The notes below the pieces were generated by a model, which made no database searches, had not been told where the DNA came from, and saw only the letters and a program-made list of their open reading frames with translations. From positions 96,001 through 160,000 of the IMG/VR virus record IMGVR_UViG_3300021963_000029: a stretch of DNA of 64,000 bases; one strand, 5' to 3'. The stretch is from a virus. The position numbers and the translations under genes were made by a program. Of the stretch, positions 20,515 through 21,716 are shown one piece after another; within the stretch, counting starts at the first letter, position 1, and each line of letters begins with the position of its first letter.

Positions 20515-21294
20515 ATGGCAATTAGCACTAGCACTGAGGCTTTGATATCTTTATACCAACAAAAAGTAGAGTCAGATACTGAACAAATTACGCAGGTAAC
20601 TTATACAGAAAATGGGTTTACTACTCAGTTAGCTAATGGAGATCAATTTAAACTATATGGAATTCAAGAAACTTTAGATTATTTTGATGCTCCCATAGAA
20701 AAATTAGATACAAGAATAATTGAATTAAACTCCCAAATTGTTGGTCTTCAAAATACAATAATCAATGTAGGGCAATCTGCAAATACTTGTGGATGTGGAG
20801 GTGCCATTGGATTTGGTAGCACAGGAGTTCCATTTTTTATAGGAGTTAATACAACCACTGTATATGCAGATACTTTAACTTATAGGGGTTATTCATATAC
20901 TTCACCAAATCCATTTTCTGCCATTAATGGAACTCTCTCCTCTGGAAATGTTGGAGTTGGTACTGAAGATTTAACAGGTCAATCTTCACTTGGTGTCTAT
21001 TATGGTGATGTTGGTGTTGCTAGAACAACTCTGCCAGTAGCATCTTGTCCAACAGTTACAAGTTGTTCTGGATATGCAACATCAATCACAAATCTTACAA
21101 CTCAGGTAACTTCTCTCCAAACTCAAAGAAATGACTTAATTGTTAAAGTCAATTATTTGAAGAAAGAAAGGTCTAGATTCCAAATTAGAAAATATGGGTT
21201 TGATAGGCAAAAAGAGGAATTGAATGCAGAGATTGCAACAAGCAATGCTATTCTAAGTTTCTTCCAAGACCCAGCAAATGAAGAATGGTTATAA
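20515..21294 (+). CDS. hypothetical protein (two coiled-coil segments around a G/S/T/C-rich core)
   Basis: 259-aa ORF filling the gap between the fibre gene and the tRNA; codon usage matches neighbours. Confidence 0.7.
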   Translation: MAISTSTEALISLYQQKVESDTEQITQVTYTENGFTTQLANGDQFKLYGIQETLDYFDAPIEKLDTRIIELNSQIVGLQNTIINVGQSANTCGCGGAIGFGSTGVPFFIGVNTTTVYADTLTYRGYSYTSPNPFSAINGTLSSGNVGVGTEDLTGQSSLGVYYGDVGVARTTLPVASCPTVTSCSGYATSITNLTTQVTSLQTQRNDLIVKVNYLKKERSRFQIRKYGFDRQKEELNAEIATSNAILSFFQDPANEEWL

Positions 21295-21364
21295 AAACCC
21301 TACAGGCAATTTTTTGCCAGAATTTTTTTCGCCCCTTTTTTGGAATTAAAGGTCAATTTTGAAA

Positions 21365-21448
21365 TAGGAGTGGGGAGACTTGAACTCCCACGACCTTAAG
21401 GTCAACAGATTTTAAGTCTGGTGTGTCTACCGATTCCACCACACTCCC
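21365..21448 (-). tRNA. trnL: tRNA-Leu(UAA), intronless, CCA not encoded
   Basis: Acceptor stem GGGAGTG/CACTCCT, D-loop GG, anticodon loop CT-TAA-AA, long variable arm GACC-TTAA-GGTC, T-arm GGGAG-TTCAAGT-CTCCC. Confidence 0.95.
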
Positions 21449-21520
21449 AAGTGAGGACTTACCCAGCCTCAGGTTTCCCTTCACAGGCACGGTGCCTCTG
21501 CACTTCCTTCACACCTCAAC
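21449..21520 (-). ncRNA. putative structured leader RNA containing a canonical kink-turn
   Basis: GCC-UGU-GA-AGG-GAAA-CCU-GA-GGC at 21488..21466, plus hairpin GUGC/GCAC and closing stem UGAGG/CCUCA. Confidence 0.55.
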
Positions 21521-21549
21521 AGTATAGAACAAACACTCTATCCTGTCAA
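21521..21549 (-). promoter_or_regulatory. sigma70-type early promoter driving leader RNA and tRNA-Leu
   Basis: TTGACA-17 nt-TATACT. Confidence 0.8.
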
Positions 21550-21716
21550 CCCTCATAAGCAAGTTCACCCTTTAGTTCAGCAACCTTAGCAGTTGCAAAA
21601 CACTCAACACAAGTCCAGAAAGTTTCTCCACTTACCATATTTTCCTCACAAAAATGGGAAGCAACATCTTCAAGGATGCCATTGAGTTCATTGAGTTGGG
21701 TGCGATCAATCTGCAT
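21546..21716 (-). CDS. small hypothetical cyanophage protein (56 aa)
   Basis: Hand translation MQIDRTQLNELNGILEDVASHFCEENMVSGETFWTCVECFATAKVAELKG... Confidence 0.7.
   Translation of the reverse strand: MQIDRTQLNELNGILEDVASHFCEENMVSGETFWTCVECFATAKVAELKGELAYEG

Follow-up and report, generated by a model that had tools for sequence, protein, structure and literature searches.

A conserved kink-turn hairpin and a conserved 5' segment in the leader of a cyanophage tRNA-Leu gene

The window analysed here, a stretch of 64,000 nucleotides, corresponds to bases 96001-160000 of a 180.8-kb virus genome that has a GC content of 36% and 12 tRNA genes. Because an Rfam search found a PhotoRC-II motif and a glutamine riboswitch in the window, and relatives of this virus carry pstS and T4-like structural genes, we consider it to be a freshwater T4-like cyanophage. 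On the minus strand a sigma-70-type promoter, a leader and a tRNA-Leu(UAA) gene follow one another (Table 1). An earlier reading of the same DNA (the original prediction) had pointed out this arrangement, and its description of the following parts was accurate: the promoter (TTGACA-17-TATACT) matches the consensus at 11 of 12 positions, the tRNA is detected by two programs, the leader, for which about 57% GC had been counted by hand, has 56% against 36% in the genome, and the kink-turn sequence is exactly as described.

Table 1. Features of the tRNA-Leu transcription unit and its surroundings, in window coordinates
Feature	Position	Strand	Basis or remark
56-aa Cys-containing ORF	21716..21546	-	upstream of the promoter
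Sigma-70-type promoter	21549..21521	-	-35 TTGACA 21549..21544, 17-nt spacer, -10 TATACT 21526..21521
Module A, GUGUGAAGGAAGUGCAG	21514..21498	-	predicted transcript 5' end, start G21514
Module B, 46-nt kink-turn hairpin	21498..21453	-	conservation and covariation
Kink-turn core	21488..21466	-	GCC/UGU/GA/AGG/GAAA/CCU/GA/GGC, read from the sequence
Spacer ACUU, U at -1	21452..21449	-	directly before the putative RNase P cleavage site
tRNA-Leu(UAA), CCA not encoded	21448..21365	-	Rfam (56 bits) and ARAGORN
GGCAA/UUGCC hairpin, T or A runs	21318..21305	both	possible bidirectional terminator

According to the comparison with its relatives, the leader appears to be a real, conserved small RNA composed of two modules, a 17-base 5' segment (module A) and a kink-turn hairpin (module B). 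The distance between the -10 box and the first G of module A is 6 nt in the Leu-type relatives (those with the element in front of tRNA-Leu), whose promoter layout is identical to that of the window, and 6-10 nt over all the promoter-driven units. Because GUGUGAAGG starts 6 nt past the -10 hexamer in every Leu-type relative, transcription most likely starts at G21514, the 7th nucleotide past the -10 box. This bears on the closing stem UGAGG/CCUCA that had been proposed to form a three-way junction: the 5' half of this stem, 21518..21514, falls into the 6 nt separating the -10 box from G21514, at or upstream of the predicted start, and the bases upstream of the start vary among relatives, in which the pairing is not maintained. 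For these two reasons we discarded the junction. At the other end of the unit, the hairpin downstream of the tRNA, which was scored computationally on the plus strand and read by eye on the minus strand, possibly ends both the tRNA unit and the convergent gene 20515..21294(+). The small ORF upstream of the promoter is present at this position in all the Leu-type loci, its TGA stop codon lies within the -35 box and it has no match in PHROG.

Read from 5' to 3', module B is formed by the P1 strand GAGG (21498..21495), CA, CC, GU, the core, UG, GG, UAAGU and the strand CCUC (21456..21453), which pairs with GAGG in a conserved closing stem that covaries. The core has a C stem GCC/GGC, a UGU bulge, tandem G.A and A.G pairs, an A-U pair, two G-C pairs and a GAAA loop. 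Another hairpin that had been suggested in this region, GUGC-AGAG-GCAC, is confined to the Leu-type sequences and overlaps the covarying stem. The duplication of UGUGAAGG (21513..21506 and 21485..21478) that had also been noticed is in fact there, but the alternative pairing that it was thought to allow is not supported, as the upstream copy belongs to a separate conserved module that occurs also without the kink-turn. This upstream copy was considered as an alternative kink-turn as well and rejected, since it has no matching C stem and is found in sequences that lack module B.

The 46-nt hairpin is nearly identical in more than 100 contigs of uncultured freshwater phages, and an exact 23-mer of its core is present in 40 viral contigs of IMG/VR. 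A degenerate pattern in which CCGU, both GA steps, a GNRA loop and UGGGUAA were fixed and the stems were left free recovered true loci from viral contigs (45) and from metagenomes (roughly 60), and the loop was GAAA in every true match though any GNRA was permitted; in 596 Gb of cellular genomes the same pattern gave 15 matches, all of them unrelated and due to chance. By blastn against 50,697 GenBank phage records, only the tRNA part of the leader sequence was matched, and the 71-nt Gly-type element had zero matches. Family members score 76-84 bits with a covariance model built for this element, and a search with it over about 390 kb of related loci and the whole genome added just two further copies, in contigs L161 and L165 (62 bits), in which the stem above the kink has 10 bp, the loop has 14 nt and GAAA is absent, the rest being kept.

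The alignment of the family comprises 26 distinct 56-nt sequences and is gapless. Pairing is found in 99.7% of its cells at P1, C9-G45, CC:GG, GCC:GGC, the kink-turn and AGG:CCU, and the central 34 nt are almost invariant. Two-sided changes are found at four pairs, 4-51 (U-A, G-C, A-U), 6-49 (A-U, G-C, G.U), 9-45 (U-A, C-G) and 25-30 (G-C, A-U), and these compensatory changes affect the closing stem and the helix that lies above the kink. The covariation score was reached by none of 500 shuffles, every slid register scored lower and RNAalifold predicted nearly the same hairpin. Variants of the core include a UAU bulge, G.U in place of A-U at 3b:3n and a compensatory change from G-C to A-U at the third pair. 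Among the Leu-type contigs the core is 95% identical, compared with 72-81% for the adjacent ORF, the promoter and the 5' segment and 75% for the tRNA. All these data, that is, more than 100 conserved loci, two-sided changes at four pairs and a kink-turn signature, agree with the original prediction of a phage non-coding RNA element co-transcribed with a tRNA, and they argue that module B is a real structured RNA. That it could not be assigned to a named family also agrees with our results, as only the tRNA passed in a search of 21300..21620 with Rfam 15, all the other hits having E values of at least 1.7 and lying far below their gathering scores; the Rfam riboswitch, ribozyme, sRNA, Yfr and PhotoRC models gave no match in the leader up to an E value of 10.

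By its helices, bulge and tandem pairs (GCC/GGC, UGU and GA...GA) the core has all the sequence characteristics of a standard simple kink-turn, a class whose geometry is tightly kinked, with an included angle of about 50 degrees and A-minor contacts. G21, A22, G33 and A34 are invariant in the 26 distinct sequences, and bulge position L2 varies between G and A. The -1b:-1n pair, C17:G35, is also invariant, and C:G or A:U at this position favours kink-turn folding (PMC8191799). The 3b:3n pair is A:U, replaced by G.U in 2 loci, and kink-turns with a Watson-Crick pair at 3b:3n fold poorly or not at all in metal ions alone (PMC8191799, PMC4382518), so that the kink is expected to fold only with the help of a protein or a tertiary contact. 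The GAAA loop is reached 5 stacked pairs up from the kink, and 6-7 pairs down from it there is an invariant CC:GG step beside the UAA(A/G)U internal loop; by analogy with other bent helices, docking of the loop back onto its own stem could be geometrically conceivable. However, docking as an essential feature is weakened by L161 and L165, which lack GAAA and are yet otherwise intact, and because of these long-stem variants a protein partner is our better guess. Neither L7Ae (PF01248) nor Nop (PF01798) domains are encoded in the phage genome.

Several known classes were tried and rejected. A box C/D RNA, in which a guide is flanked by a C box (RUGAUGA) and a D box (CUGA) and the partners are L7Ae, Nop5 and fibrillarin, does not fit, as the 5' strand CUGUGAAG is not RUGAUGA, a guide region is absent and so are PF01248 and PF01798; a relation to TIGR-Tas or to box C/D systems in general was dismissed in the absence of an array and of a Nop domain. 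The pairing scheme is not that of an HDV-like ribozyme or of a hammerhead, and an ACCA 3' tail like that of a tRNA minihelix is found in the Gly-type leaders and is absent from the window and from the Met type. A resemblance to Kt-7 of 23S rRNA and to the J11/12-P12 region of RNase P was also set aside, as it is not collinear and covariance-model support for it is absent.

We found module B in 82 distinct contexts. The most common (about 56) consists of tRNA-Thr, promoter, element and tRNA-Gly(UCC); about 10 have the order ORF, promoter, element and tRNA-Leu(UAA), as in the window; and in about 15 the element lies between tRNA-Ile(UAU) and tRNA-Met(CAU), with promoter and 5' segment absent. 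A tRNA on the same strand begins 9-34 nt past UGGGUAA in 71 of the 82 contexts, which are nearly all of those with enough downstream sequence, and its start is a few nucleotides past P1, a distance that grows to about 25 nt in loci with an additional hairpin in between. Such a hairpin, of about 24 nt, is located between the element and tRNA-Met in a subset of the Met type (L042:1500-1520, L043-L045, L090 and L148), and in L042 it is a perfect palindrome, AUUCGCUAUUUGCAAAUAGCGAAU. In one further contig, L097, module B is intact and lies 599 nt from tRNA-Met. Between tRNA-Ile and tRNA-Met of this contig the element is flanked by ORFs for an HNH endonuclease (L097:471-848, 125 aa) and a 2OG-Fe(II) oxygenase-like protein (L097:928-1494, 188 aa), and these inserted ORFs mark the boundaries of the element.

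Syntenic relatives, in which the neighbouring 668-aa protein is about 80% identical, have a different hairpin. In contigs L162 and L164 and in the isolate DSL-LC02, GUGUGAAGGAAGUGCAG is followed by a plain GNRA-capped hairpin, ACUU or AUUU, and tRNA-Leu, and in L284 the P1 stem and the UAAGU loop are retained and an AU hairpin replaces the kink-turn. The tRNA in this slot also varies: in L013:6523-6597, L021:8449-8524, L139:4073-4145 and L284, a 73-76-nt tRNA with a UAA anticodon and no long variable arm substitutes for the 84-86-nt class II tRNA-Leu. Two other tRNA-associated sequences came to light. The tRNA-Leu of Synechococcus phage Sf-CH1b (L052:330-405) has a structured leader of about 60 nt past a TATAAT box, with GAGAGGC...GCCUCUC, whose sequence is unrelated to modules A and B. 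Outside the window, at G000:C1:86686-86790 (-), tRNA-Arg(UCU) is directly preceded by a sequence that looks like the T arm and acceptor end of a tRNA (GUUGGUUCGAAUCCAAC followed by CACUCUCU); this sequence is not called as a tRNA by ARAGORN, and it may be an interrupted or degenerate one.

Module A has a distribution of its own. The exact 17-mer GUGUGAAGGAAGUGCAG is present in 47 viral contigs, in 27 of which it is followed directly by a GC hairpin and a U tract, forming a stand-alone unit of about 45 nt whose hairpin stems covary between contigs, and in 7, of marine origin, by a short hairpin and tRNA-Gly(UCC). Its first 13 nt, GUGUGAAGGAAGU, are found in Syn9, Syn19, S-RIM8, S-MbCM25, S-8S53 and DSL-LC02. 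In the marine cyanomyoviruses Syn9, Syn19, S-RIM8 and S-8S53, and in S-MbCM25, an identical GUGUGAAGGAAGU heads the stand-alone unit, which is located between g23, the gene of the major capsid protein (or small ORFs past g23), and gp3 and terminates in an intrinsic terminator; the GenBank records of these isolates have no annotation at this unit. Furthermore, a search of GenBank with a 101-nt stretch containing it gave matches in 205 cyanophage records, and in 30 of these the match covers at least 80% of the stretch. The unit of contig L247 had no Rfam match. In the isolates, (C/T)ATAAATA or CTAAATA, which resembles T4 late promoters, is found 7-9 nt upstream of the unit, so that to judge from this motif the unit could partly represent the 3' end of upstream late transcripts. 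In marine isolates (L285:760-775, L287, L290 and L291) both flanks are late-promoter-like, with (C/T)ATAAATA before the unit and CTAAATA past the terminator.

The first ~10 nt of module A are predicted to be unpaired, with a probability of about 0.9 in most variants and of 0.5-0.9 for the window sequence. Freshwater Gly-type phages have a diverged module A, GUGUGAAGUGAAG, and GUGUGAAG alone is invariant in most variants, being GUGUGAAAG in one freshwater sub-group. Among the other promoters of the window phage, GUGUGAAGGAAGUGCAG is not a general initial transcribed sequence, and the phage genome contains no sites complementary to module A beyond chance. What we define here as the cyanomyovirus GUGUGAAGGAAGU small-RNA family is characterized by a promoter-like motif 6-10 nt upstream, a conserved 5' segment of 13-17 nt, a stable hairpin, a U tract or tRNA and a single copy, and the window sequence belongs to it by all of these features, as do its relatives. 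Module B and the 17-mer occur once each in the 180.8-kb genome, and the exact 13-mer once each in DSL-LC02, S-8S53 and Syn19. This single copy sits in the tRNA-Leu leader of the window phage and of DSL-LC02, and past g23 in S-8S53 and Syn19, in which the tRNA-Leu genes lack the leader element.

As the best explanation for these observations, we lean towards a gene fusion, in which the leader is a small-RNA gene of the phage attached to the tRNA gene and the 3' end of the RNA would be made by RNase P at the tRNA instead of by a terminator. The host RNA polymerase would start at about G21514, and the RNA would be headed by the conserved, single-stranded module A, followed by the structured module B. 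RNase P, cutting where tRNA-Leu begins, would then free an RNA of about 66 nt, and the context fits such a predicted release of a stable RNA, with U at -1; a U also precedes the tRNA in the leaders inspected, which were read by eye with no tally. Once freed, the RNA would remain stable and presumably act in trans. In the marine relatives an intrinsic terminator stands in place of the hairpin and tRNA, and in other phages a plain hairpin with tRNA-Leu or tRNA-Gly is found there. This interchange suggests that the tRNA, besides being co-expressed, could serve to form the 3' end. Module B is a portable kink-turn hairpin, which between tRNA-Ile and tRNA-Met would be freed by tRNA 3'-trimming enzymes together with RNase P.

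An alternative to a fused small-RNA gene is that the leader serves the tRNA in cis, for example as a guide for RNase P, as a safeguard against misfolding or as protection of the primary transcript, and is functionless after cleavage. It is in agreement with this that nearly all contexts have a tRNA directly after the element, that the leaders inspected have U before the tRNA, that the Gly-type stem can reach down to the cleavage site, and that cyanophage Syn9 is limited by how much tRNA-Leu(UAA) is supplied (PMC11726456). However, a role dedicated to tRNA maturation, as contemplated by the original prediction, is difficult to reconcile with one copy per genome against 12 tRNAs, with three different tRNAs attached in different phages and with L097, where module B is retained 599 nt from the next tRNA; moreover, marine phages have module A with a terminator and no tRNA, and the marine tRNA-Leu genes of Syn19 and S-8S53 do without the element, so we regard a purely cis-acting leader as unlikely. 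The other function that had been put forward, that of a riboswitch-like element, fares worse. A ligand-sensing aptamer, or a self-cleaving ribozyme for the maturation of the tRNA precursor, would agree with the 34 nearly invariant core nucleotides, which resemble the conservation of small aptamers and ribozymes, and several riboswitch classes do contain kink-turns (PMC4316175). But with just 4 nt from hairpin to tRNA, and with no terminator or ribosome-binding site, the leader has no expression platform, and no Rfam model of these classes matches it. Besides, L161 and L165 swap the GAAA-capped 3-bp stem for a 10-bp stem with a 14-nt loop, and L162, L164, L284 and DSL-LC02 have plain hairpins instead of the kink-turn at the same position, and both readings seem to us very improbable. 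We give hardly any credence to a chance motif or to an element acting at the DNA level, such as a protein-binding or recombination site. The bare kink-turn-hairpin pattern is in fact not rarer than expected (13 in the genome and 8.75 in shuffles), and the folding energy of the leader is ordinary with respect to shuffles (z = -0.06); because the motif by itself does not go beyond chance, the evidence consists of the covariation and of conservation in more than 100 contigs. The copies are always on the tRNA strand, and the compensatory changes preserve an asymmetric hairpin, as expected for neither chance nor a DNA element.

Within the reading of a small-RNA gene fused to a tRNA gene, we explored what module A could pair with. 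The motif ACUCCUCACAC of Yfr1 is ultraconserved, single-stranded and pairs with ribosome-binding sites (PMC2796815), and module A could act as a decoy that pairs with it and titrates Yfr1, an abundant regulator of porin mRNAs in cyanobacteria. The 11-nt motif is complementary to GUGUGAAGGAAGU over its whole length, with two A bulged out, the duplex is predicted by RNAduplex at -11.6 kcal/mol, a value matched by 16 of 5000 random 17-mers (0.3%), and the variant of L010 would pair at -15.4 with a single bulge. Against this, 266 of 5000 composition-preserving shuffles (5.3%) equal it, because purine-rich segments and pyrimidine-rich motifs pair readily, pairing is weak (-7.8) for the most frequent freshwater variant, a dedicated antisense would hardly be expected to conserve two bulges, and the anti-Shine-Dalgarno tail of 16S rRNA is nearly as good a partner (-9.2). 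We therefore take this complementarity as a lead and not as a finding, and a decoy function as rather improbable. A broader proposal, a long shot of the same order, would join all the forms in one small-RNA gene of marine and freshwater cyanomyoviruses: its 5' seed GUGUGAAGGAAGU would sequester the Yfr1 of the host, or else some other conserved RNA of the host, and in this way reprogram the expression of genes for the outer membrane or for stress, its 3' end would be made by a terminator or by RNase P through the tRNA fusion, and the kink-turn of the freshwater forms would recruit a kink-turn-binding protein of the bacterium or of the phage.

To the best of our knowledge, very few phage small RNAs are known. 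For cyanophages, the list given in a review is limited to CfrI and to cis-regulatory motifs, among them glnA, manA and wcaG (PMC12197685). Neither module is described in the literature searched, and both, with their two-module architecture, stand-alone marine relatives and one copy per genome checked, have apparently been undescribed until now. One short RNA gene thus appears to be common to hundreds of marine isolates and more than 100 freshwater contigs, with an unusual plasticity, as its 5' module is ended by a terminator, by a plain hairpin and a tRNA, or by a kink-turn hairpin and a tRNA. The supply of tRNA-Leu(UAA) decides whether Syn9 infects a resistant Synechococcus strain (PMC11726456), and it is on this tRNA, limiting for Syn9, that the element of the window sits. 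If our reading of a fused small-RNA gene is correct, it would offer a testable phage case of RNase P-dependent formation of an sRNA 3' end, a kink-turn that should need a partner in a phage genome without L7Ae or Nop domains, and a candidate phage regulator of host RNA networks in the culturable systems Syn9, S-RIM8, Syn19 and DSL-LC02.

Finally, among known systems the nearest functional analogues are the species 1 and 2 RNAs of T4, the plant tRNA-snoRNA dicistrons and the sRNAs with a 5' seed. The species 1 and 2 RNAs (rnaC and rnaD) are small stable RNAs of the T4 tRNA cluster, matured by the tRNA-processing enzymes. The likeness, which we draw by description only, is that of a small RNA of a T4-like phage co-transcribed with a tRNA; however, the T4 RNAs are larger and partly tRNA-like, whereas the RNA of the window would consist of a kink-turn hairpin and a 5' single-stranded segment. 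With respect to its kink, the nearest standard class is that of the box C/D RNA and U4 snRNA sites, protein-dependent kink-turns bound by L7Ae/15.5K; module B differs in having no RUGAUGA C box, guide region or C'/D' boxes and in its bacterial and viral setting. Kink-turn-bent helices also enable loop-receptor contacts in P16-P17 of RNase P (PMC3672288) and in riboswitches (PMC4316175), and the GAAA loop of module B could dock in this manner on its own stem, although L161 and L165 lack that loop. In plants, according to what is cited in PMC12045711 of the work of Kruszka et al. (2003; PMC140725), dicistronic genes have a snoRNA after a tRNA and RNase Z releases it. Here too a kink-turn RNA is co-transcribed with a tRNA and would be released by a tRNA-processing endonuclease, with the differences that the phage RNA precedes the tRNA, that the enzyme would be RNase P and that there is no methylation guide. 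As for the trans-acting sRNAs of bacteria, such as RybB (PMC2796815), in which a 5' seed is combined with an intrinsic terminator, they resemble the marine unit, with its promoter-like motif, single-stranded 5' segment, covarying GC hairpin and U tract, whereas in the window the terminator is replaced by a kink-turn hairpin and a tRNA.
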